A DNA stretch of 53,365 nucleotides from Minisyncoccota bacterium (GCA_036517335.1 DATDWX010000020.1:1-53365), one strand, 5' to 3'; shown: positions 5,120-16,007, counted from the stretch's first letter. Notes: generated by a model not told the origin, from the letters alone. Numbers and translations: made by a program.

Positions 5120-5410
5120 TTACTTCAAAAGTCCTAACCCTCTCCAGAGTTCGTCTTCATTGATTCCGGCTCTCACTAAATTCTTAAAGATCTTCATCTT
5201 CATTTGTTTAGACATGTCTGCGTATACGGTTGTAACGAACCCTTTGAAATCAGCAGGATCGAAGCCTGGGCGTCTCACGGCATAATGTGAGCCGCTGGAA
5301 AGATTAGTCACTAGGAAACCGACTTTTTGGACTGCTTTAATAAAGTCATCGCGTGAGGCCTTGTCTATCTGCTGGATCAGGCCTTTACGTTTTATCAGCT
5401 CATCAGCCAT
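5120..5410 (-). CDS. HicA-like toxin (putative mRNA interferase)
   Basis: 96 aa. The core KVGFLVTNLSSGSHYAVRRPG resembles the HicA GSH-containing dsRBD-like fold. Lies 33 nt downstream of a HicB-like gene. Confidence 0.45.
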   Translation of the reverse strand: MADELIKRKGLIQQIDKASRDDFIKAVQKVGFLVTNLSSGSHYAVRRPGFDPADFKGFVTTVYADMSKQMKMKIFKNLVRAGINEDELWRGLGLLK

Positions 5411-5443
5411 AGTTATCAGCGATAAGCCGATCCTACCAAGAGA

Positions 5444-5845
5444 CTACGCGGCAACTCTTTCACCTCCGGCCACTGTATACAAGGCGGTTACCTGCTCGCT
5501 ATTGTAGACTTTCACTGTTTTTGAAGTCTCAACATTAAAGGTTGTACGGATCGCTTCTTGCACGTTGTGATTTATTTCATCATCTGAAGGATTCGGGTTT
5601 TTACCTCCCGTGAGTATTCCCTCAATTTCCACACACTCTGCCGTCCAACCGTCAGCATCTTTGTGAACCTTGAAACGCAAAACGCCTCCGACTTTCCGGA
5701 TTTCATCATTCATTATTTGAACAGCGCGAGCATCCTTTGCAGCCTCATCCCTGCCAAAGATATTCCGCAATTTTCCTTGCAACATAGTATAGTTCGACGC
5801 CAGATTCAAAGTAATCTTACCTCGCTTTTTGACGTGGAGGGGCAT
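5444..5845 (-). CDS. HicB/UPF0150-like antitoxin domain protein
   Basis: LRFKVHKDADGWTAECVEIEGILTGGKNP matches the HicB N-terminal pattern (DGGYxAxxPxLPGxxTxG). No obvious DNA-binding tail. Start uncertain. Confidence 0.55.
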   Translation of the reverse strand: MPLHVKKRGKITLNLASNYTMLQGKLRNIFGRDEAAKDARAVQIMNDEIRKVGGVLRFKVHKDADGWTAECVEIEGILTGGKNPNPSDDEINHNVQEAIRTTFNVETSKTVKVYNSEQVTALYTVAGGERVAA

Positions 5846-5890
5846 TTTAGCACGGGCTGGGGGAAAACGATGGAAGACCCGCTCCTAACG

Positions 5891-6145
5891 TTAGCGGCTA
5901 GTCCGCGCTTTTTTAACGTCTTTCTGCCGTTCAGCGTCGTACTCGAACAGCCGCATTCGCGCCTCGCGCGATAGCGATTGAGTGAAATGATGCGCCGCGC
6001 CCAAGACACCGCTCCTATCATGCTTGCTCCATTCCTCGGATAATTCTTTCCCCGAGCGCTGGTCATTCTGCATGAGAACTATTCTAACAAAGAGATCGGC
6101 TCGGGCACGCGGGGCCAGAGCCGATCGTCGCGGACGGTAGGCCAT
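5891..6145 (-). CDS. Hypothetical protein (84 aa), high-G+C islet
   Basis: ATG lies 4 nt after the stop of the upstream Cys-rich ORF (the track starts it one TTG codon earlier). No recognisable motif. Confidence 0.35.
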   Translation of the reverse strand: MAYRPRRSALAPRARADLFVRIVLMQNDQRSGKELSEEWSKHDRSGVLGAAHHFTQSLSREARMRLFEYDAERQKDVKKARTSR

Positions 6146-6149
6146 CAAA

Positions 6150-6398
6150 TCAAGACCTACTCATAGAGACGCGTGCCGTTATGCACTGCAGGTGGCAGAA
6201 CGGATACCAGCCCGGCGATCCGCCGTCTTGATGCTGAGCCCAGCACCAGTAAACCTTGTTGGCTGAGCATCTGTCGCCGCAACCGCAAAAAATCATCTCT
6301 CCTGCATTTTTCGGCACCTCCTTCACGGTAATGGGGCGCAGGGAAGAGAGCAGATTTTCGAAATCGAGACTCTCGAGTGTGCACGGAACTGACGTCAT
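6150..6398 (-). CDS. Small Cys-rich protein (82 aa, 7 Cys), putative metal-binding
   Basis: SD GGAGG lies 6 nt upstream of the internal ATG (MTSVPCTLES...). Contains FCGCGDRC and FCHLQC clusters. A perfect minus-strand TATAAT (6496-6491) lies ~90 nt upstream. Confidence 0.45.
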   Translation of the reverse strand: MTSVPCTLESLDFENLLSSLRPITVKEVPKNAGEMIFCGCGDRCSANKVYWCWAQHQDGGSPGWYPFCHLQCITARVSMSRS

Positions 6399-6511
6399 GA
6401 ACCACCTCCCCAAAAAGAGCTCGCTTCACAGCCCGCTCCGCAGCAGGCGACAAGATATTCGCGGAATCGCCTATCCAGTATCAGGGTAGCATTATATTTG
6501 TGTAGCTTGGT

Positions 6512-6546
6512 ACCAATAAAAGGATAGCCCCGCCGAAGCGGAGCTA
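6512..6546 (-). terminator. Intrinsic terminator after the 154-aa ORF
   Basis: Minus strand reads TAGCTCCGC-TTCG-GCGGGGCTA followed by TCCTTTTATT. This is a 9-bp stem with one mismatch and a UUCG loop. Confidence 0.7.
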
Positions 6547-6611
6547 TATCGGGTGCACACGGCTGCCAGTGTCTCGGGTGTGGATCAATCCTTTCCGCTC
6601 CGTCACATGAT

Positions 6612-7076
6612 CTACTCGCCCTCCTCTTGGAAGAGAAGACCAAGCACTGGATCTTGCGTCTTGACGTAAAGAGCGAGCAGAAGCTTTGCGCCGACCGATC
6701 CTGCCGCCGCGGCTCCCTGCCAGCGGTCCAACCATTCGCCGAGCGTCTTGACCGCACGGCTCACCTGGCCGATCGCACGTGCGTCGAGATAGACGGTCTC
6801 GTTGTATGCGGCGAATTCCGGAGCAGCGTAATCTCGCTTCGTATTTGCAGAGCGGTGCGTTCGCACTCGGTATGCGCGTCGCGCATCTTTATGCGCCTGC
6901 TGACGAGCATAGTTGTGCTCAAGCGCGAAACTATGCAGTTCGTCGAGCGACGCGTACCGGTACTGCGCACGAAGGTGTCTCGGAACATCGACGACGCCGA
7001 TGGGAGCGCCCTCTTCGTTGAACTCGATGTACACCAAGGGATGCCGCGAAAGCGGCTCGTAACGGCGGAATGCCAT
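6612..7076 (-). CDS. Hypothetical protein (154 aa), high-G+C islet
   Basis: SD AGGAGA lies 6 nt upstream of the internal ATG (MAFRRYEPLSRHPLVYIEF...). The 144 upstream codons of track ORF 6612..7508 look non-coding. Has its own terminator. Confidence 0.55.
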   Translation of the reverse strand: MAFRRYEPLSRHPLVYIEFNEEGAPIGVVDVPRHLRAQYRYASLDELHSFALEHNYARQQAHKDARRAYRVRTHRSANTKRDYAAPEFAAYNETVYLDARAIGQVSRAVKTLGEWLDRWQGAAAAGSVGAKLLLALYVKTQDPVLGLLFQEEGE

Positions 7077-7214
7077 GGCTGATCTCCTGTAAAACCCACG
7101 GCACCATACACCGGCATGTACGCAAAGACAATGAGCGTGCTGGCATTTATCTGAAAATCGTGGTATGGTACTTGCGGATAAGAGTGAACACCCAGCAACT
7201 GAAGGAACAGCAAC

Positions 7215-7346
7215 ATGATGTCCCGTCTTGAGTATGCCGGTGGCCTGTTTGCCGGTGGAAGTTACGCGTTCGTTGCCGCCGCACTGCTGTGTGCGGCATT
7301 CGTCGCGTCGGTGCATGCCGCTGCCGATGCAGTGCTCAGCTTCTAA
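7215..7346 (+). CDS. Micro-ORF, 43-aa hydrophobic peptide
   Basis: GAAGGAA lies upstream of ATGATG. Translation: MMSRLEYAGGLFAGGSYAFVAAALLCAAFVASVHAAADAVLSF. Confidence 0.25.
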   Translation: MMSRLEYAGGLFAGGSYAFVAAALLCAAFVASVHAAADAVLSF

Positions 7347-7585
7347 ATCGTAGAGCAGAAATGGCACACCTGCTACATCCTCAGGACTTTCAGGTCCGTG
7401 ACGCCGTCGTCGATGGATGGACACCCGGACAAAAAAAGTTCTTGATGAGTTCGGCTTTAATACGGCTCTATGCAAGATCGAAGTCGACGAAACCCGCTTT
7501 CTCCTCATCTCGCAGAAGGGGAAAAACTTGTCGTTCGGATGTACGCCCGAGTTCTGGAGGCCAACCTCTTAAAGGAGCAGGAATC

Positions 7586-7741
7586 ATGGCATTCAACTCG
7601 GAAGACGGATGGCCGTGCGCTTGTCCGCGCAAGCTGCCGGTTTCTCCCGACGATTGGGAAAACGGCGACCTGTGCCCGCACTGCCAGATGCCGCTCATTG
7701 ATCCCGACTACTACGAGCCGCAGCCGCTCGCGTACCATTAG
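7586..7741 (+). CDS. Small zinc-ribbon-like protein (51 aa)
   Basis: SD AAGGAG lies 8 nt upstream. MAFNSEDGWPCACPRK...DLCPHCQMPL carries a CxC...CxxC arrangement. Confidence 0.4.
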   Translation: MAFNSEDGWPCACPRKLPVSPDDWENGDLCPHCQMPLIDPDYYEPQPLAYH

Positions 7742-7820
7742 CTCACGCCGAACCTTTCACCGTCCCCATCCTCGCGCTGGGGGCGGTTTCTCTTTGCTGC
7801 ACAGCTGATATCCTTTCCAC

Positions 7821-8108
7821 ATGCGCGAAGAGTTCACTCACAGAAAAGCGAAGCTTGAGGGCGAGACTGGCGATCATTTCAATAATCTCTACGACGAAGA
7901 CGAAGACCGCGCAGGGCAAAAAATCAACGAGGCAACCGGTAAGCGAATCAACAACACTCCCGTTGTCAGTGGGATGGATGAACAACTCACTGTGCAAAAA
8001 ATCAAGCGTGGAAGGAGTGAGGATGTACTGGGAAAATTATCGGAGAAGAATGATGCGGCAGCCCGGTGGCTCCGCGAACACGGAGACGATACGCAGGAGG
8101 CGGCCTGA
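7821..8108 (+). CDS. Hypothetical charged protein (95 aa)
   Basis: Open frame with plausible hydrophilic composition. No SD and no recognised motif. Confidence 0.35.
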   Translation: MREEFTHRKAKLEGETGDHFNNLYDEDEDRAGQKINEATGKRINNTPVVSGMDEQLTVQKIKRGRSEDVLGKLSEKNDAAARWLREHGDDTQEAA

Positions 8109-8240
8109 TTTACTATTCGCGACTTTTCCAAAATAGCCTTGCGAAAAACGCTCCCAATTGATACGGTTCAAAAGGAACGCCAAGCACAGCGTCTTGGCTT
8201 GTTCTGGCAATCCTGCCATTTGACACAAAGAGGTAGCACA

Positions 8241-8618
8241 ATGCCATTCGATGACATGCCAGCGATTGCGCAGCGGAGCGCAACGAAGCTTGTGAACCCG
8301 ACCCGCAACGACCTGCTCATTCTCGCCGCCGAGCAGCTCGAACGGAATCCCGACCTGATGTACCGGCCGCTCTACAACGTCGAGGGCACCGACGACGGGA
8401 TGCTGCGAACCCAAATCACGACCGGTACCGTGCTCGAACCCATCGTCGGCGCAATCTTGCCGTACCGCGAGGTCAGCAACACCGTCGGCAGCCTGATGAG
8501 CGCACTCGATCTGACGAAGGGCGACGTGCACCAGGTCGCCTGCTACTGCCACCACGGCGCTGGGGGAGCCAAGGCCGCAATCGTCGCGCAGCGCCTCCGG
8601 GCTATCGCCGCCAAGTAG
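8241..8618 (+). CDS. Hypothetical protein (125 aa)
   Basis: Internal ATG (MPFDDMPAIAQRS...) preferred over the track start at 8139. Followed by a strong terminator. Confidence 0.45.
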   Translation: MPFDDMPAIAQRSATKLVNPTRNDLLILAAEQLERNPDLMYRPLYNVEGTDDGMLRTQITTGTVLEPIVGAILPYREVSNTVGSLMSALDLTKGDVHQVACYCHHGAGGAKAAIVAQRLRAIAAK

Positions 8619-8640
8619 GCCGCGTCCCGGCCTAACCGAA

Positions 8641-8699
8641 GCCGCCCGTCGCGGAGATCCACACGGATCTTCTGCGACGAGGCGGTCTTTCTATTTTTT
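8641..8699 (+). terminator. Long imperfect hairpin plus T-tract
   Basis: GCCGCCCGTCGCGGAGATCC-ACAC-GGATCTTCTGCGACGAGGCGGT followed by CTTTCTATTTTTT. Confidence 0.75.
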
Positions 8700-8819
8700 G
8701 CTTGCTGTGGGCCTCTGGGGCGCGAGCATTACCGCCGCCTTATGGGTTCCCTTATAGCCCCTGAAAACCCTTGTGTTTCCTCGCCGTCGCAGGTTCTGAC
8801 ATCGACCAACATACGCAGT

Positions 8820-8847
8820 TTGAGATAGGTTATCGCGCTCGAGTCGC
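8820..8847 (+). repeat. 28-nt direct repeat, copy 1 (upstream of the ATPase)
   Basis: TTGAGATAGGTTATCGCGCTCGAGTCGC. Differs at 1 of 28 positions from the copy at 11729-11756. Confidence 0.9.
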
Positions 8848-9009
8848 GCCGATGTACTCGTCTGTAGTAGCCTATAATAGGGACGTGGCTATCCATTCTG
8901 AAAAAAAGTTGGGAGAAGCACGTGAATCCATTGAACGGACGGTTATTTTGTACGATAGGGACAAATCCTTACCGCACACTGAGCCGCGCGCGACCGACTC
9001 GCCGACGCT

Positions 9010-11718
9010 ATGACATCTTCCTGGCACGATAGAGATATACCAGCGGTCTTTGGGGTGCTGCGCTCCAACGATGGGGGACTCAGTGCAAGTGAAGCCCTTC
9101 GGCGGCTCAAAGAAGACGGACCAAACGCGCTGCCCGAAGCGAAGCCTGACGGCCTGTGGCTTATTTTTCTGCGCCAGTTTCAGAGTCCGCTCATTTATAT
9201 CCTTCTTGCTGCAAGTGGGGCGGTATTTCTTCTGGGCGAGGTCGTCGATGGAGCAATTATCCTCTTCGTACTCATCTTTAACGCCGCTGTCGGTACCGTG
9301 CAGGAGGGCAGGGCGCAGAATACGCTCCTTGCACTTAAGAAGTTTACAGAGACGACGGCGACCGCCGTGCGAGATGGACATGAGGTCATCGTACCTGACC
9401 GCGAGATCGTGCGTGGCGACATACTTATCGTGCTGGAAGGCGAGAAGATCCCCGCTGACGCTCGGATCATCGCTGCGAGTGGCCTGAAGATAGATGAGGC
9501 GTCACTCACGGGGGAGTCAGAGCCGGTCGGCAAGATGGCAGAGTCAATACCTACAGAAACTCTTCCAACGTCCGAGCAGCGCAACATGCTTTTCAAAGGC
9601 ACTATTATCGTTGCCGGCAGCGGCAAGGCAGTAGTGGTAGAGACCGGAGTGGGCACTGTCATCGGCAAAATCGCCGCAGAAATATCAGCGATCGATTCCG
9701 AGATCCCGCTAAAAACAAATATGCGCTACCTCTCACGCGCCATTATCGTCGCAGTGGCTGGAATAAGCACCCTCCTTTTTGTGCTCGGACTGTATAGAGG
9801 TGAGGATCTGGTAACGATCTTTGCTACGGTTGTCTCGCTCTCGGTCTCAATTATCCCCGAAGGGCTCCCTATAGTTATCACGCTTGTCCTTGCAACCGGC
9901 GTATGGCGCATGTCTAAGCGGAACGCGCTCGTAAAAAAGTTGCAGGCAGTCGAAGCCCTGGGCCAGGCGCAGGTCATAGCGGTAGACAAGACAGGTACAA
10001 TCACCAAGAACGAGCTCGTCATCCGCGAAGTTTGGACAGAGGGAAGAGTGTTCAAAATTGGCGGTGTTGGCTTTGAGCCCAAAGGTTCGGTCGAACTCGG
10101 CGGTGTAATCGTTGATGCTGCAAATCATCCGGAGCTTCTTCTGGCCGGCAAGATGGCAGCTTTTAGTACGCATGCCCACGTCTCATACTCAGAGATTGAA
10201 GGACGCTGGCGGGTTGCAGGCGACCCGACAGAGGCGGCGATAGGCATCTTTGGAGAGAAGGTCGGCTTTAAAAAGGATGACCTGGTACAAGAGTCTCCGC
10301 TTGTTGCAGAGATACCGTTCGACTATAGGCTCAAATTCCAGGCAACGTCACATCTCGTGGATGGAAAGAATTTTTTAGTCGTCGAGGGTGCGCCGGAAGT
10401 CGTGCTTGCGTTTTGTAACCATATATACCGCGATGGCGAGAGCCGCCCCCTGAGGAAAAAAGATGTTGAGGAACTCGAGGCGGTCATTGCAGAAATGTCC
10501 GAGCGAGGTTTGCGCGTCGTAGCGGGTGCCATGCGGGAGAGTGCCCCGTCTGGCCTAACGCACGAATCCGTAACGGGCCTCACGTTCGTACATTTGTTTG
10601 GTATGCAGGATATCTTGCGCCCGGAGGTTGCCGAGGCGATGGAGCGTGCAACAGCCGCTGGTATCAAAGTCGTCATGATCACCGGCGATCATAAGATCAC
10701 CGCCCATGCCATTGCCAGGGAGGCGGGTATTTGGAAAGAGGGCGACAAGGTACTTTCAGGAGCGGAAGTGGACGGCATGTCCGACACCGAGCTTGCGGCC
10801 CGACTTTCTGACGTGTCCGTTTTTGCGCGAATGACACCCGAGCATAAGCTTCGCATCATTCAGGCGTACAAGGGGCGCAAGGAGATCGTTGCCATGACTG
10901 GCGACGGCGTAAACGACGCACCCCCCTTGGTTGCTGCGGACCTGGGCGTTGCTATGGGGAAAATCGGTACCGAGGTAGCCAAGGAAGCGGCCGACATCGT
11001 GCTCCTCGACGACAATTTTGGCAGCATCGTCTCCGCGATAGAGGAAGGGCGGAGCATCTACAAGACGATCAAGAAGGTCATTCTGTACCTCTTCTCGACC
11101 AGTCTCGGCGAGGTACTGGTCATTATTGTCGCCCTCTTGCTCGGGTACCCGCTCCCCATCCTTGCGGCGCAGATCATCTGGCTGAACTTCATTACCGACG
11201 GCTTTCTTGATGTTTCGCTCGCCATGGAGCCAAAGGAGGATGGTTTGCTGAGAGGCACATTCGAGCGGCCGAACAAATATATCGTCGACGGCCTCATGGT
11301 GCGGCGCATGGTGGTCATGGCGTTGCCGATGATGTTTGGGACACTCTTCATGTTCCAGGGATACTTCGAGTCCGATCTGGCGAAGGCGTGGACGATATCG
11401 CTCACGACACTCGCGGTGTTTCAGTGGTTCAATGCATGGAACTGCCGCTCAGAGAGTGAGTCGGTATTCCAAATGAACCCTCTCTCCAATATGTGGCTCC
11501 TTGGGGCAACGGCGATCGTCATAACACTTCAATTTCTCGCGGTGTATCACCCGCTTCTTCAGTCGATACTCCGTACTGTACCCCTTTCGCTTGCGGAGTG
11601 GCTCATGGTCATTCCGATTGCTGCATCAATCGTGGTGGTGGAAGAGGTTCGCAAGTTCTTCTACCGCAGAAAAAAAGACCGAGTGACAACAATTGTTCCG
11701 GCCTCAGCTTCGCTCTAG
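9010..11718 (+). CDS. P-type cation-transporting ATPase (type II, Ca2+/cation-pump-like)
   Basis: Motifs TGES, phosphorylation site DKTGTITKN, PEGLP, MITGDH, TGDGVNDAPPL. 902 aa with about 10 TM segments. Confidence 0.9.
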   Translation: MTSSWHDRDIPAVFGVLRSNDGGLSASEALRRLKEDGPNALPEAKPDGLWLIFLRQFQSPLIYILLAASGAVFLLGEVVDGAIILFVLIFNAAVGTVQEGRAQNTLLALKKFTETTATAVRDGHEVIVPDREIVRGDILIVLEGEKIPADARIIAASGLKIDEASLTGESEPVGKMAESIPTETLPTSEQRNMLFKGTIIVAGSGKAVVVETGVGTVIGKIAAEISAIDSEIPLKTNMRYLSRAIIVAVAGISTLLFVLGLYRGEDLVTIFATVVSLSVSIIPEGLPIVITLVLATGVWRMSKRNALVKKLQAVEALGQAQVIAVDKTGTITKNELVIREVWTEGRVFKIGGVGFEPKGSVELGGVIVDAANHPELLLAGKMAAFSTHAHVSYSEIEGRWRVAGDPTEAAIGIFGEKVGFKKDDLVQESPLVAEIPFDYRLKFQATSHLVDGKNFLVVEGAPEVVLAFCNHIYRDGESRPLRKKDVEELEAVIAEMSERGLRVVAGAMRESAPSGLTHESVTGLTFVHLFGMQDILRPEVAEAMERATAAGIKVVMITGDHKITAHAIAREAGIWKEGDKVLSGAEVDGMSDTELAARLSDVSVFARMTPEHKLRIIQAYKGRKEIVAMTGDGVNDAPPLVAADLGVAMGKIGTEVAKEAADIVLLDDNFGSIVSAIEEGRSIYKTIKKVILYLFSTSLGEVLVIIVALLLGYPLPILAAQIIWLNFITDGFLDVSLAMEPKEDGLLRGTFERPNKYIVDGLMVRRMVVMALPMMFGTLFMFQGYFESDLAKAWTISLTTLAVFQWFNAWNCRSESESVFQMNPLSNMWLLGATAIVITLQFLAVYHPLLQSILRTVPLSLAEWLMVIPIAASIVVVEEVRKFFYRRKKDRVTTIVPASASL

Positions 11719-11728
11719 TAAGAAAGAG

Positions 11729-11756
11729 TTGAGCTAGGTTATCGCGCTCGAGTCGC
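11729..11756 (+). repeat. 28-nt direct repeat, copy 2 (between the ATPase and otsA)
   Basis: TTGAGCTAGGTTATCGCGCTCGAGTCGC, 2909 bp downstream of copy 1. Confidence 0.9.
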
Positions 11757-11762
11757 TCTCTA

Positions 11763-11789
11763 TGGGGTCAAATCCCCACATGTTTATTT
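11763..11789 (+). terminator. Weak terminator-like hairpin after the ATPase
   Basis: TGGGG-TCAAAT-CCCCA followed by CATGTTTATTT. Confidence 0.35.
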
Positions 11790-11792
11790 GGT

Positions 11793-11821
11793 TTGAGTTG
11801 AACTACAGATACAGGTATCAT
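11793..11821 (+). promoter_or_regulatory. Putative sigma70-like promoter giving a leaderless otsA mRNA
   Basis: TTGAGT, 17 nt, TATCAT, then 7 nt to ATG 11829. No SD. Confidence 0.45.
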
Positions 11822-11828
11822 CTATCGA

Positions 11829-14036
11829 ATGCGGCAGATACTCCTTGTAATAGGCGCCCTTATACTCATGGTGAGCCTCGTTGTGGGGTTTTCTGTACTA
11901 AGCCAGGCAAATCGGGAGCAGGTTGAGCTTACTGCCCGTCTGCAATCACGCAGCCAAGTCTTGGCCGATTCTCTCGCAGAAAGTATCGGTTCTTCATACA
12001 ATGCCCGCGCTACGAGCTCGACACAGCGCATCATAGACAAATTCGTGAGTAACGAACGCCTTGCGGGTCTCGGCGTTTTTAATAACTCCGGATTGATCGT
12101 TGCCACTTCCAAAGACCTCCCGCTTATGGATGATACTGCGTTCATTACCGGCGTGATGGACAGCGACGAATCGCAGGGTGATTTCGTGCGCAAAGACGGA
12201 GAAGTGTATTACGTACAAGTAACCCCGCTTCACGATGATAACGAACGAGTCATCGGAGCCCTCGCGGTCGCGCAAAATGCAACGTACATAGATAATGGTA
12301 TTCGCGACATCTGGCAGCGCAATCTGATACGATTTTTCTCGCTCATCCTTATTTTTGCTGGCACCATCTTTATTTTGGTACGGTGGGTCTTTTTCCGTTC
12401 GATATCAAAGCTGGTCGAATCACTGCAAGCGGCCCGCAAAGGTGATTCCGATGGCATGGTACCGAGCGCTGGCTTCCTTGCGCCGCTTGCAGGGGAAATA
12501 TCAAAAGTAACGACCAGTCTGCGTCAAGCGCGTCTCGCGGCGAGCGAAGAGGCGCGTATGCGGCTCGAAAAGATAGATTCGCCTTGGACGGCCGAACGGC
12601 TTCGCGAATTCATCAAGGCCTATCTCAAAGACAGGCCGATATTCGTCGTTTCAAATGCCGAACCGTATATGAATACCCGAACAAAGAACACCATCGAATG
12701 GAACGTCCCGGCGGGCGGCGTCATCACTGCTATAGAGCCGGTGATGGAGGCTTGCGGCGGCATGTGGATAGCCAATGGCTCAGGGCCAGCCGACAGGGAC
12801 ACTGCCGACGCCGAAGGCAAGGTGCGTGTCCCGCACGACGAGCCGAGATACACGCTCAAGCGCGTGTGGCTTTCCGAGGAGGAGACTCGCGGCTACTACA
12901 ATGGATTCTCCAACGAAGCCCTGTGGCCGCTCTGTCACATGGCGCACGTCCGCCCGGAGTTCCGCAAAGAGGATTGGGCTGAGTATCGCAAAGTCAACGC
13001 ATTGTTTGCGAAATCGCTGCTCGACGAGATACGTCGCGTCGAACGGCCGATCGTCTTGGTGCAGGACTATCACCTCGCGCTCGTTCCCGCGCTCATAAAG
13101 AAAAGCAGGCCCGACGCGCAAGTGGCGATATTCTGGCATATTCCGTGGCCGTCAGCCGCGCAATTCAGTATTTGTCCGTGGCGCGTCGAGCTGCTCGAAG
13201 GGATGCTCGGCGCCGACCTTATTGGCTTTCACACACAGCAGTACGGTAACAATTTCATGGACACCGTAGCAAGTGAAATAGAATCGCGCATTGATTACGA
13301 GCACTTCTCCGTGTTCCGCGAAGACCATCAGACCTTCGTGAAGCCATTCCCTATTTCGATCGCCTTCCCGGGAAGTGCCGAACGGCTTGAGAAACCCGAC
13401 CAGAGCGTCCTGGATCGGCTCAACATCCGCACACCGCATGTGGTGCTGGGCGTTGATCGCTTCGACTACACCAAGGGCATCCCGGAGCGCCTGCGCGGTA
13501 TCGAATTTCTTCTGGATATGCATCCCGAATATCGGGGCCAGCTTACGATGCTGCAGATAGCATCACCCACCCGCGAGTCGCTGGGCTCCTACGCGCGCTA
13601 CCGCGAGCTGGTGCGAGGCGAAGTGGCGCGTATAAACGAAAAATTCGCCACGCGTGATTGGGTGCCGATCGTGCTTGAAGAACGCAGCTATTCCCACGCA
13701 GAATTGCGGCAGCTGTATCAGGTGGCCAACATCTGCGTAGTCACCTCGCTGCACGACGGCATGAATTTGGTCGCCAAGGAATTTGCCGCAGCGCGCCACG
13801 ATGAAGCGGGAGTGCTGGTGCTGAGCCACTTCACAGGCGCATCGCGCGACCTAAAAGGCGCACTCCTTATCAATCCCTACAGCGCCGAGGAAACAGCGGC
13901 AGCCCTGCAGACCGCCCTCACCATGCCGAAAACCGAACAGCACCGCCGCATGAAGGTGATGCGCGCATCGGTGCGCGATTACAATATTTATCGCTGGTCG
14001 GCGGAGATCATAAAGGCGCTTTCACAACTGGAGTAG
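11829..14036 (+). CDS. otsA: Trehalose-6-phosphate synthase (GT20) fused to an N-terminal TM / extracytoplasmic / TM / HAMP-like module
   Basis: From residue ~270: FVVSNAEPY, YYNGFSNEALWPLCH, VLVQDYHLALVP, IFWHIPWPS, LIGFHT, GVDRFDYTKGI, VVTSLHDGMNLVAKEF. N-terminal part: TM ILLVIGALILMVSLVVGFSVL, a ~140-aa loop, TM FFSLILIFAGTIFILVRWVFF, then ISKLVESLQAARKGD...LAGEISKVTTSLRQARL. Confidence 0.85.
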   Translation: MRQILLVIGALILMVSLVVGFSVLSQANREQVELTARLQSRSQVLADSLAESIGSSYNARATSSTQRIIDKFVSNERLAGLGVFNNSGLIVATSKDLPLMDDTAFITGVMDSDESQGDFVRKDGEVYYVQVTPLHDDNERVIGALAVAQNATYIDNGIRDIWQRNLIRFFSLILIFAGTIFILVRWVFFRSISKLVESLQAARKGDSDGMVPSAGFLAPLAGEISKVTTSLRQARLAASEEARMRLEKIDSPWTAERLREFIKAYLKDRPIFVVSNAEPYMNTRTKNTIEWNVPAGGVITAIEPVMEACGGMWIANGSGPADRDTADAEGKVRVPHDEPRYTLKRVWLSEEETRGYYNGFSNEALWPLCHMAHVRPEFRKEDWAEYRKVNALFAKSLLDEIRRVERPIVLVQDYHLALVPALIKKSRPDAQVAIFWHIPWPSAAQFSICPWRVELLEGMLGADLIGFHTQQYGNNFMDTVASEIESRIDYEHFSVFREDHQTFVKPFPISIAFPGSAERLEKPDQSVLDRLNIRTPHVVLGVDRFDYTKGIPERLRGIEFLLDMHPEYRGQLTMLQIASPTRESLGSYARYRELVRGEVARINEKFATRDWVPIVLEERSYSHAELRQLYQVANICVVTSLHDGMNLVAKEFAAARHDEAGVLVLSHFTGASRDLKGALLINPYSAEETAAALQTALTMPKTEQHRRMKVMRASVRDYNIYRWSAEIIKALSQLE

Positions 14037-14037
14037 T

Positions 14038-14799
14038 ATGAAAAACGCGCTCCGGCACCTTCCTCATCTTCTCCCGCGGATCCGCAAGAATGGATTCCTT
14101 CTCATGCTTGATTTCGACGGCATCCTTGCACCCATTGTGGTGCACCCAGAGCGCGCACGCATGTCGGCCCGTACGCGCCGACTCCTAGCAGCATGCGCAC
14201 GGCGCGGGCGCGTTGCGGTCATCTCCGGACGTGCGCTCGCGGATGTGCGCTCGCGCGTCTCCCTTCGCAGGATCTGGTACGCAGGCAATCATGGCGCCGA
14301 ATGGGCGATGGGGGCCGCGCGTGGCCAAGCGCGGCCGTCGCGCGCTACTGCCGCCCAGCTGCGCGATGCCAAGCGCGCGTTCACCGAGCTCGTCCAACGC
14401 TACCCAGGCGCCGTGGTGGAAGACAAAAAAATTACCTTCAGCGTGCACTTCCGTGGGCTTGCTCGCACACGCATTCCGCGATTCAAAAAAGATGCCGTAC
14501 GCCTCGCGCGCGCATTCATACGCCTGCTCGACATTGCCGAGGGCAGCGAATATATTTTCAACGTACGTGGACGCTCCGGTCGCACCAAGGGCAGCGCGGT
14601 GCATCTCGCACGCCAGGCGGCCCCGCGGCGCATGGTGGCGATATACGTTGGCGACGACACAACGGATGAGGACGCCTTCAGAGCGCTTCCTCACGGTATA
14701 ACGATAAGGGTGGGCAAACGAGCGAAAAGCTCAGCGCGCTTTTGCATCCGCAACCGCTCCGAGGTTGATTCCATTCTCGCCGTTCTCGCCGCGATCTGA
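14038..14799 (+). CDS. otsB: Trehalose-6-phosphate phosphatase (HAD family)
   Basis: HAD motif I LMLDFDGILAP and motif IV VGDDTTDEDAF. Starts 1 nt after the otsA stop. Confidence 0.7.
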   Translation: MKNALRHLPHLLPRIRKNGFLLMLDFDGILAPIVVHPERARMSARTRRLLAACARRGRVAVISGRALADVRSRVSLRRIWYAGNHGAEWAMGAARGQARPSRATAAQLRDAKRAFTELVQRYPGAVVEDKKITFSVHFRGLARTRIPRFKKDAVRLARAFIRLLDIAEGSEYIFNVRGRSGRTKGSAVHLARQAAPRRMVAIYVGDDTTDEDAFRALPHGITIRVGKRAKSSARFCIRNRSEVDSILAVLAAI

Positions 14800-14804
14800 A
14801 GCGC

Positions 14805-16007
14805 TCATGCCTCATTCATATCAAGCACCAAGGCGCCCCAAGTGAATCCCCGCGCGCCCTGTCCTTCGCCCGTATCCGGATTGAAGCACTCTCTAAAGCC
14901 GGAGCGCCGTAGCAATGCGAGACTTTTTTCTCGAATGTCGGCCGCTTCTGCCTTACGTCCATATCGCAAAAGGCCGCGATAGATAAACCAATGCACCGCC
15001 ATCCACGCAGGACCGCGCCACGAAAACCCGTCAGCGTACCCATCGGCGCGATACGCTTCTTCTCGTTTTGATACCGTCCGTATACCAAACGTACCATAAA
15101 ATGTATCAGGGTTGAGCAAGTGTGTACGCACCACGCGGTCTGCCTCCTCTTCGGAATATAGGCCAGCGAACATAGGCGCGAAATGGGCCCACGTAGCGAT
15201 TTTGAGTTTTGTGTAATCTAAGCCAGAGGCCGACCAATATACACCGTCTTCAAACAATCTCTCGCGCATGGCGTCGGCGATCAGATCGGCATGCAGATTG
15301 GCAAAGCGCTCTCCATCGCCGTGCTTGAGTAGTGATGCGATGTGGGCGAGCGCGCGCAAATTTTCCACAAGTATCGAATTGAAAGGTACATCCTTCACCC
15401 AAAAGTAGTCGCGCATACAGAGCTCCGCGTCGAATTTGCATGCGGTATTTTCGCCGATGAGTTTCTCGCGAAGCGCGAGGTGCTCTTTGTACGTGATGTC
15501 AGGGGCGGCCGACATTGGCCCATCGAATCGCGATGAATTATCCTCGCCGGATTCGTCGGGGTTGACAATGCCGATCAGATGATGATCTTGGGGATCCCTT
15601 TTTTCGATAAGAAATCGATAGTATGCGAGAAGCGCAAGGTAGATAGATTCGAGAAACGCGACATCGGGATTGCGGCGGTGTATTTCCCACGCCGCATAAG
15701 CGGGCATCGGCGGCTGTGTAAGCGAACTCGTGCCCTCCACCCCCCAATCAAAGAGATGCAAAATGCCCGGTTTCCAATAGATGATGTGTGGCACCATGCC
15801 GCTTGGCAATTGGCGCGAAAGTATTGAGCGCAATTCTTCACGAGCCGCCTCCGGATCGAATTGCGCCAAAATAATAGCGTGGAAGCACGAGTCCCACAGC
15901 CACTGGTAGGGGTAATGCTCTTCTGAAGGGACTGTGTATTGGTGCCCGTCAGTGATCCGACGGTTCTGCTCCAACAATTTTTTTGCCTGCGTGAAAATGT
16001 CCACCAA
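14805..16007 (-). CDS. (alpha/alpha)6-barrel glycoside hydrolase, GH63/MGH1-like (candidate compatible-solute or trehalose hydrolase)
   Basis: YPYQWLWDSCFHAIIL, FSWRGPAWMAVHWFIYRGL and CFNPDTGEG resemble mannosylglycerate/glucosylglycerate-hydrolase-type GH63 enzymes. Convergent with otsB, with a 5-nt gap. Confidence 0.55.
   Translation of the reverse strand: MVDIFTQAKKLLEQNRRITDGHQYTVPSEEHYPYQWLWDSCFHAIILAQFDPEAAREELRSILSRQLPSGMVPHIIYWKPGILHLFDWGVEGTSSLTQPPMPAYAAWEIHRRNPDVAFLESIYLALLAYYRFLIEKRDPQDHHLIGIVNPDESGEDNSSRFDGPMSAAPDITYKEHLALREKLIGENTACKFDAELCMRDYFWVKDVPFNSILVENLRALAHIASLLKHGDGERFANLHADLIADAMRERLFEDGVYWSASGLDYTKLKIATWAHFAPMFAGLYSEEEADRVVRTHLLNPDTFYGTFGIRTVSKREEAYRADGYADGFSWRGPAWMAVHWFIYRGLLRYGRKAEAADIREKSLALLRRSGFRECFNPDTGEGQGARGFTWGALVLDMNEA

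Follow-up and report, generated by a model that had tools for sequence, protein, structure and literature searches.

Can the synthesis of a compatible solute be placed under the direct control of a signal from outside the cell by building the receptor into the biosynthetic enzyme itself? This question is raised by a gene at 11829..14036 of a 53,365-nucleotide stretch of DNA from an uncultured, ultra-small and Kaiserbacteria-like Minisyncoccota bacterium (GCA_036517335.1 DATDWX010000020.1:1-53365; the whole stretch is referred to as the window), in which a trehalose-6-phosphate (T6P) synthase of family GT20 is preceded by 270 residues with the layout of a membrane sensor. An earlier note on this DNA had claimed that an input of the histidine-kinase or chemoreceptor type is joined here to a biosynthetic glycosyltransferase, an architecture which is borne out by profile and fold matches to the kinase WalK. 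Together, the results favour, with a probability of roughly 0.6, a one-protein, homodimeric transmembrane receptor-enzyme in which, we infer, a change at an extracytoplasmic Cache domain is passed through the second transmembrane (TM) helix, a HAMP segment and a dedicated linker to the GT20 enzyme. The parts of the gene are as follows, in positions of the window.

11829..14036, + strand: sensor-fused trehalose-6-phosphate synthase gene (sensor-otsA), a single uninterrupted open reading frame (ORF) of 735 aa with its stop codon at 14034-14036
11829-11867, + strand: stretch skipped by the automatic gene call, which starts at Met14 and not at Met1
11793..11821, + strand: promoter-like hexamers TTGAGT-17-TATCAT, from a consensus scan, ending 7 nt before the ATG at 11829
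11838..11894, + strand: TM1, residues 4-22, hydropathy 2.81, within AlphaFold2 helix 2-58
11895..12323, + strand: predicted extracytoplasmic sensor, a stalk helix and a single WalK-type Cache/PAS-like domain, residues 23-165
12324..12380, + strand: TM2, residues 166-184, hydropathy 2.55, continuous with helix 152-203
12381..12536, + strand: putative divergent HAMP, residues 185-236, comprising amphipathic sequence 1 (AS1, 185-205), connector (206-217) and amphipathic sequence 2 (AS2, 218-236)
12537..12638, + strand: family-specific helical linker ASEEARMRLEKIDSPWTAERLREFIKAYLKD, residues 237-270, joining AS2 to the first GT20 strand
12639..14033, + strand: GT20 (OtsA-type) catalytic domain, residues 271-735

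The range 11829-12640, given earlier for residues 1-270, is correct at its start; its true end is 12638, position 12640 lying two bases into codon 271.

The first step towards an answer is whether these parts belong to a single protein. Relatives were collected by a pattern scan of one genome per species with peptide patterns of the type found in the Candidate Phyla Radiation (CPR), a design which recovers CPR relatives only; it returned 150 species-level relatives, all Patescibacteria by record title or tree position, of which 80 loci were kept. A search with residues 1-270 alone found 302 proteins with E-values down to 1e-157, nearly all of them 733-738 aa long, and a profile of the N-terminal module reached 1441 representative clusters (50% identity, E <= 1e-3), many of which are fragments. 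Such matches are well outside what chance would produce. For nearly all of the 302 homologues, GT20 (PF00982) is the only recorded Pfam domain, so that the sensor half is invisible to metabolic reconstructions, and the public annotation reads simply 'trehalose-6-phosphate synthase'. An artefact, whether two genes merged by an assembly or frameshift error or an N-terminal region that is in truth a separate gene, might be read into the automatic gene call, which begins 13 codons later, and into one relative (L004) that is broken by a frameshift; it is nevertheless hardly credible and was rejected, given that the sensor and GT20 parts run in one frame without a stop in 78 of the 80 independent loci, which come from many studies, that more than 100 full-length homologues of 733-738 aa exist, and that near-identical sequence has been assembled in at least six separate metagenome runs. 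The two exceptions to the in-frame fusion are the frameshifted copy in L004 and the locus L024, which holds two intact paralogues. In L004, from a Kaiserbacteria metagenome-assembled genome (MAG), the sensor-GT20 gene at 6001-8093 is broken into overlapping ORFs at 6001-7053 and 6870-8093, through either a frameshift or an assembly error. In L024, the paralogous sensor-GT20 genes 5128-7407 (759 aa) and 8199-10448 (749 aa) flank an otsB gene (trehalose-6-phosphate phosphatase) at 7365-8186 in an operon-like row.

With regard to the start site, the automatic call gives a protein of 722 aa from Met14 (P0002), which cuts into TM1 and loses most of it. The N-terminus MRQ(V/I)LL, conserved among homologues, supports the ATG at 11829 as the start rather than Met14. 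The hexamers upstream are a pattern match only, such promoter-like sites numbering 7 in the 8-kb region against 4.5 expected; inspection of the sequence between them and ATG 11829 revealed no Shine-Dalgarno motif, so the sensor-otsA mRNA may be leaderless.

The second step concerns the membrane topology of this protein. Kyte-Doolittle hydropathy in 19-residue windows gave strong peaks only at residues 4-22 and 166-184, and both recur at matching places in essentially all of the 120 homologues listed. AlphaFold2 was run on the full length (48 sequences) and on the N-terminus (23 sequences), with a mean predicted local distance difference test (pLDDT) score of 84.7 and 85.0, and the two models agree on a helix at 2-58, an alpha/beta PAS-like domain at 62-150, a helix at 152-203 that contains TM2, a loop at 204-217, a helix at 218-248, a short helix to 266 and the GT20 domain from 271. 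TM1 probably serves as a signal-anchor that is not cleaved, which would leave just the residues MRQ on the cytoplasmic side; a possible cleavage site (SQA|N) lies after it. The domain between the two peaks is hydrophilic and about 143 aa long; since GT20 requires cytoplasmic nucleotide-sugar and glucose-6-phosphate (G6P), this domain must face outward.

Several lines of comparison bear on the identity of the outward domain. The family profile matched the ectodomain structures of S. aureus WalK in the PDB (5is1, 4ywz, 7dud) at E-values of 6e-4 to 2e-3, and model positions 10-263 of NCBIfam HK_WalK matched at E 6.8e-9; Pfam Cache models gave E-values of 3e-5 (dCache_1) and 1.5e-4 (Cache_WalK), with similar sub-threshold Cache matches in 8-12 of 23 relatives. 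In the AlphaFold2 model, where pLDDT is 86-96 across residues 30-160, the region between the TM helices is predicted to have an alpha/beta fold like that of PAS domains, with a long helix at its N-terminal end. When the model of the 268-aa module was searched with Foldseek, the top match was 9a5d, a model of WalK in full length, aligned over 252 columns that include the TM helices and HAMP (E 3.8e-10), followed by the WalK ectodomain 4ywz (TM-score 0.75, root-mean-square deviation 3.1 A) and, further down, by KinD, CitA, DctB, PctC and other Cache/PAS domains at E 1e-6 to 1e-3. Conservation was assessed in 68 full-length CPR proteins, about 40-70% identical overall, which also served for the measurement of spacing; in these diverged proteins, 27 ectodomain positions are at least 90% conserved, which indicates that the ectodomain is under selection. 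Taken together, the sequence matches, weak but consistent, and the predicted fold, which is clear, support an outward domain of the Cache/PAS type, most like that of WalK.

The likeness to WalK (YycG) extends over the order of the parts (TM1, extracellular sCache, TM2, HAMP) and over their similar sizes, WalK being the best profile and fold match for the ectodomain and 9a5d the best for the whole 268-aa module. In contrast, the cytoplasmic PAS, DHp and catalytic ATPase domains of WalK and its response regulator partner are missing here, GT20 being the output instead, and identity is only about 17%. Pfam and NCBIfam scans gave no HisKA or HATPase_c match for a histidine-kinase output, and GT20 fills the whole cytoplasmic part. 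The protein is thus not a histidine kinase, and its likeness to WalK is one of the input module only; judged by these comparisons, the input half is distantly homologous to the WalK input module and would work in a similar way. In B. subtilis, WalK depends on its 148-aa sCache loop to detect how active D,L-endopeptidases are on the cell wall (PMC7299342).

The identification of the segment after TM2 was less direct. As Pfam HAMP and a profile search of the PDB both found no HAMP in it, a separate reference profile was built for hhalign from nine E. coli K-12 receptors (Tsr, Tap, Tar, EnvZ, CpxA, PhoQ, NarX, CreC and AtoS), whose HAMP regions were delimited by Pfam and aligned. Against these nine, a profile of 52 family linkers placed residues 184-236 on HAMP columns 5-50 with a probability of 88.8% and an E-value of 2.5e-6, and this segment was the sole match when the whole N-terminal profile was compared with the HAMP profile. 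The landmark Pro, Gly and Glu residues are in register: AS1 ends at the nearly invariant G205, which closes it, and the invariant E223 opens AS2, in which P219, L220 and L231 are invariant too. At the start of AS1, most relatives have K/R-P-I/L and the window protein R-S-I. The connector varies in length, with 16-20 residues from R203 to P219, and is longer in this family than in E. coli HAMPs. The NCBIfam models of CreC and AtoS align across their TM2-HAMP regions, and the AlphaFold2 secondary structure after TM2, which ends at 184, consists of a helix to 203, a loop at 204-217 and a helix from 218, some 50 residues in all. On profile-profile comparison, position and predicted secondary structure, residues 185-236 are therefore best described as a putative divergent HAMP.

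These results agree in nearly every respect with what the earlier note had proposed for the N-terminal half. It had predicted two TM helices, which are found as hydropathy peaks at 4-22 (2.81) and 166-184 (2.55) and as AlphaFold2 helices; a hydrophilic segment of about 140 aa between them, which is seen at about 143 aa; a HAMP-like segment after TM2, for which the hhalign match and the helix-loop-helix pattern speak, Pfam HAMP being unmatched; and a GT20 start near residue 270, placed by Pfam at 272. The Cache-like fold suggested for the loop was recovered by profile and by Foldseek in the matches to the WalK ectodomain. TM helices and a HAMP-like signal are present, and with 78 of 80 loci in frame there is no sign of a separate gene.

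Whether such a module transmits a signal or merely holds the enzyme at the membrane is the third step, on which conservation and spacing bear most directly. The linker (residues 237-270, consensus ASEEARMRLEKLDSPWTAERLKEF...) is the best-conserved segment of the protein, with a mean pairwise identity of 79%, compared with 62% for the catalytic domain, 56% for AS2, 43% for the Cache core and 24% for the HAMP connector, and 22 of its 34 columns are at least 90% conserved. From W162 to R203, a path through the stalk, TM2 and AS1, there are 41 residues in 68/68 proteins; from P219 to W253 there are 34 and from W253 to E278, in the first GT20 strand, 25, again in all 68. The 59 aa from P219 to E278 are thus free of indels throughout, and all indels sit in ectodomain loops or in the HAMP connector. 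The helical relays of HAMP receptors are held to a fixed register, and the invariant spacing argues for a relay rather than a flexible tether, which would not be bound to one.

The same question is addressed from another side by a group of proteins in which the sensor is joined to a different enzyme. In P0136, a TM-Cache-TM-HAMP module (sensor profile E 6.6e-54, residues 2-234) is followed by a GCS2 carboxylate-amine ligase that replaces GT20, and five clusters of such fusions (P0136 and P0271-P0274, 72-100% identity) share this YbdK-like carboxylate-amine ligase domain. Their loci are as follows.

L089:3373-5445: GCS2 fusion locus
L092:10001-12049: GCS2 fusion locus
L093:9102-11150: GCS2 fusion locus
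L094:2119-4167: GCS2 fusion locus

P0274, the one cluster checked in this respect, was found unbroken on 10 contigs (JGI, Logan and NCBI). CPR bacteria and DPANN archaea commonly have soluble GCS2 relatives of about 440-480 aa. In the tree of the sensor module, the five GCS2-fused proteins form one clade (100/100), nested within a Kaiserbacteria-type clade (100/99) that includes the window protein, and they part from the OtsA family just after AS2; the conserved linker 237-270 is absent from them and was hence not carried over. Tree and alignment indicate a single transfer of the sensor cassette onto a GCS2 ligase, cut just after HAMP. As the swap took place without the linker, TM-Cache-TM-HAMP appears to act as an input cassette that can be transferred, with the linker as a GT20-specific adaptor, which suggests that the cassette is a general-purpose enzyme input.

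The competing explanation is that the N-terminal module, although derived from a sensor, now serves as a constitutive membrane anchor or scaffold that holds OtsA and not as a switch; its purpose could be to channel trehalose or T6P to an exporter or a glycolipid pathway, or to place the enzyme beside an ion pump. We regard this as unlikely, though it has points to recommend it: neither a ligand nor regulation of the module has as yet a known example, the Pfam thresholds for HAMP and Cache are not reached, a P-type ATPase neighbour in 13 of 80 loci could mean co-localisation, and the conservation of the linker could be purely structural. However, one TM helix would suffice for an anchor, for which both a 143-aa ectodomain with 27 near-invariant positions and a path of zero-indel register over 68 diverged proteins are superfluous. 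A tether tolerates changes of length, yet only the HAMP connector and the ectodomain loops vary, and the re-use of the exact TM-Cache-TM-HAMP cassette on GCS2, an unrelated soluble enzyme, is typical of input modules. Fixed register, a hyper-conserved linker and the cassette swap thus favour transmission over mere anchoring.

The fourth step is the nature of the output. Residues 272-732 match model positions 4-472 of 473 in Pfam PF00982 (Glyco_transf_20) at E 2.7e-118, with 396 bits against a cut-off of 32.5, and 23 solved trehalose-6-phosphate synthase (TPS)/OtsA structures are matched at E <= 1e-20; identity to E. coli OtsA is 32%. The top-scoring NCBIfam families are the OtsA equivalog TIGR02400 and the bifunctional synthase/phosphatase (TPS/TPP) model NF011071, with GgpS (glucosylglycerol-phosphate synthase) lower at 304 bits. 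Ten of 11 E. coli OtsA site positions (crystal numbering) are kept, each being invariant or present in at least 44 of 48 relatives: G22, Y76, W85, D130, H154, R262, K267, R300, D361 and E369 correspond to G297, Y357, W366, D413, H437, R544, K549, R582, D643 and E651, among which D413, H437, K549 and E651 show no variation, while all but one of the 48 sequences have R544, R582 and D643 (47 of 48 in each case). The roles of the listed residues as catalytic, donor or acceptor sites, and that of Arg9 (in VVSN-R) as a ligand of the G6P phosphate, are reported by Gibson et al. 2002. The adjoining downstream gene is the following.

14038..14799, + strand: otsB, trehalose-6-phosphate phosphatase, 253 aa (Pfam Trehalose_PPase E 2.9e-33; TIGR00685 124 bits against a cut-off of 68)

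It begins 1 nt after the otsA stop codon, and with so small a gap otsB is probably translationally coupled to sensor-otsA; at the thresholds used, an otsB gene lies directly downstream in 36 of the 65 related loci with enough downstream sequence. Because otsB adjoins, T6P synthesis is most likely the activity of the enzyme, as predicted from its sequence. With Ala in place of Arg9 and this position variable in relatives, kinetics or acceptor handling may differ from those of canonical OtsA.

A further possibility accepts a receptor but holds that bulk trehalose is not the point: T6P or another GT20 product would act as a metabolic signal, or GT20 would be a ligand-sensing or regulatory domain like that of plant class II TPS, and even inside-out signalling could be envisaged. 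Consistent with this are the OtsA equivalog cut-offs, which are not reached (482 bits against 634 for NF011071), together with the match to the glucosylglycerol-phosphate synthase model, the variability of the Arg9 equivalent (R 23, G 16, A 5 and others 4 among 48 sequences), and the occurrence of otsB directly downstream in little more than half of the loci that could be scored. Yet the checked catalytic and UDP-binding residues are invariant or nearly so, unlike those of inactive class II TPS, the best matches are true T6P synthases, and the adjacent gene, which scores above the TIGR00685 cut-off, encodes a genuine T6P phosphatase and is probably translationally coupled, all of which leaves this possibility improbable.

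Returning to the receptor-enzyme, the protein would act as a homodimer, as HAMP receptors do. TM2 would be displaced when the Cache domain binds a ligand or registers a change in the envelope or in ionic conditions; HAMP would turn this displacement into a rotation or altered packing of helices, and through the linker this would act either on the Rossmann lobe at the N-terminal side of the GT-B enzyme or on how its two catalytic domains are placed relative to each other. T6P synthesis would thereby be raised or lowered, OtsB then yielding trehalose, and the control of solute synthesis would be post-translational, bypassing kinases, response regulators and transcription, in keeping with an organism whose set of regulators is very small. 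Candidate cues are ionic or osmotic stress and a small molecule derived from the cell wall or a host.

A number of results weigh against this reading. On the input side, the Pfam Cache scores all fall below their gathering values (dCache_1 24 against 45 bits, Cache_WalK 22.5 against 27, sCache_3_2 15.8 against 28.4), and neither the window protein nor any of its 23 relatives yielded a Pfam HAMP (PF00672) match at E <= 1, which makes 'HAMP-like' the right wording. A hidden Markov model of residues 183-270 searched against all PDB sequences likewise gave no HAMP at E <= 10, only noise (Exo70, E 0.23), and in the full-length monomer model pLDDT is just 52-54 at residues 200-250. A linker that simply belongs to the structure of an enzyme docked at the membrane would also be expected to show such conservation of sequence and spacing. 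On the output side, TIGR02400 scores 433 bits, below its cut-off of 565, and the equivalent of R9 is A277 (codon 277, window 12657-12659). With regard to expression, transcripts were sought in public runs, where the stretch was found only in DNA metagenome runs and in no RNA run.

A broader proposal is that Patescibacteria (CPR) possess a hitherto undescribed class of receptor-enzymes in which a portable WalK-like Cache-HAMP cassette directly gates primary-metabolic enzymes, namely OtsA in the majority of lineages and, after one swap in a Kaiserbacteria-related clade, GCS2, through a dedicated linker of fixed register. This is put forward tentatively, as a possibility that is on balance doubtful. 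If true, ultra-small cells with few regulators could switch the synthesis of a protective solute within seconds of an extracellular cue, and that cue might be a fragment of a cell wall or host surface, as for WalK, and not osmolarity.

Besides WalK, two groups of known systems invite comparison with the protein. The first comprises the soluble OtsA/Tps1 enzymes (E. coli 1gz5/1uqt, fungal 6jbi/5hut and mycobacterial 5jij), with which it shares the GT-B fold of GT20 and a full catalytic domain and, in the case of E. coli OtsA, the donor and acceptor site residues; unlike them, it has a 270-aa N-terminal extension of membrane sensor, HAMP and linker and scores below the NCBIfam cut-offs, and the position of Arg9 in E. 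coli OtsA is an Ala in the window protein. The second, to which the protein belongs as a class, comprises HAMP-coupled receptor-enzymes, such as the mycobacterial HAMP-adenylyl cyclases (Rv3645), diguanylate cyclases that combine Cache, HAMP and GGDEF domains, and RsbU-type phosphatases with Cache/HAMP and PP2C; the Foldseek matches included 6mab, the chlamydial RsbU periplasmic domain. In these, as here, one chain combines a sensor outside the cytoplasm with a pair of TM helices, HAMP and a helical linker that feeds an enzyme without phosphotransfer. The known outputs of HAMP-linked receptors, namely kinases, chemotaxis arrays, cyclases and phosphatases, all serve signalling, and those of the receptor-enzymes make or remove signalling molecules or phosphates, whereas the output here is a primary-metabolic glycosyltransferase (a GCS2 ligase in the sister clade). 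A T6P synthase protein that is itself tied to stress sensing, beyond its expression, is also found in Arthrobacter, whose OtsA is reported to be a soluble osmotic-stress sensor that moonlights through self-assembly and differs from the window protein in being without a TM, Cache or HAMP module (PMC5685639).

A full-text search of the literature found no description of a sensor-, Cache- or HAMP-fused T6P synthase, nor of such a metabolic output, and the CPR literature found merely mentions that trehalose genes exist. New here are the CPR-wide breadth of the family, the invariance of its register, the linker as its most conserved segment, the GCS2 swap, the lack of a Li+/Na+ riboswitch at this locus and the variability at position 277. 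Should the enzyme be gated as its architecture suggests, a transmembrane HAMP relay would be able to throttle a GT-B metabolic glycosyltransferase directly, so that a single protein would connect an external cue with the synthesis of a compatible solute. The family would also offer a simple model for the coupling of HAMP to a non-helical output, with an easy activity assay and a single fixed linker of 34 residues, and a handle on stress physiology in uncultured CPR bacteria, which have very few classical regulators.

The genomic neighbourhood of sensor-otsA and otsB includes the following features.

14805..16007, - strand: GH63 / MGH1-like (alpha/alpha)6 glycoside hydrolase, 400 aa, convergent (MGH1-like_GH E 3e-74, weak Trehalase E 5e-5)
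9010..11718, + strand: type IIA (Ca2+-ATPase-like) P-type cation pump, 902 aa, immediately upstream, identified by Pfam
8820-8847 and 11729-11756, + strand: 28-nt direct repeat, 27/28 identical, one copy before the ATPase gene and the other 73 nt ahead of the sensor-otsA start

The GH63-like hydrolase is a candidate enzyme for breakdown of the solute. For the pump, NCBIfam models of the PMR1/SERCA type rank best, yet below their cut-offs. Hydrolase and pump each occur in 13 of the 80 related loci beside sensor-otsA/otsB, in differing orders and orientations, a recurrence that lends weak support to a loosely conserved stress island for ions and osmotic solutes. The 28-nt repeat may be an operator common to both genes or the scar of an insertion. 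It was found in none of the 80 related loci when up to 6 mismatches were allowed, being specific to this genome, and no Rfam family matches there; the whole window has no Rfam match at gathering scores, and 8500-12000 none at E <= 1, so that a Li+/Na+ riboswitch, too, is absent. A conserved operator was rejected as an explanation of the repeat, given its absence from 80/80 related loci.

With respect to its distribution, the family is widespread within the CPR. The 80 loci are labelled as Kaiser-, Taylor-, Nomura-, Yonath-, Doudna-, Jackson- and Magasanikbacteria and as the Microgenomates Davies-, Curtiss- and Levybacteria; the source names of homologues include Candidatus Kaiserbacteria, Paceibacteria and Patescibacteria, and near-identical DNA occurs in groundwater and soil metagenomes. 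One protein of 913 aa, P0134 (L090:1968-4709), has two tandem Cache-like repeats ahead of TM2, HAMP, linker and GT20, and its gene neighbours (an ABC/FtsX gene, an RND-like gene, the glycine-cleavage T protein and an FAD oxidase) look unlike those of CPR genomes. Another, P0206, is a high-G+C relative that is apparently frameshifted. P0134 and P0206 suggest that the family extends beyond Patescibacteria. Many loci (L002, L005, L018, L050, L054, L055, L059, L066, L080 and others) come from third-party MAG records that bear the title 'uncultured Candidatus Saccharibacteria' or 'Gammaproteobacteria'. Those of them included in the sensor tree, L002, L005, L018, L050, L054, L066 and L080 among them, are placed inside Kaiser-, Nomura-, Doudna- or Davies-bacteria clades, and because of this position the Saccharibacteria and Gammaproteobacteria titles of such MAG records are probably unreliable.

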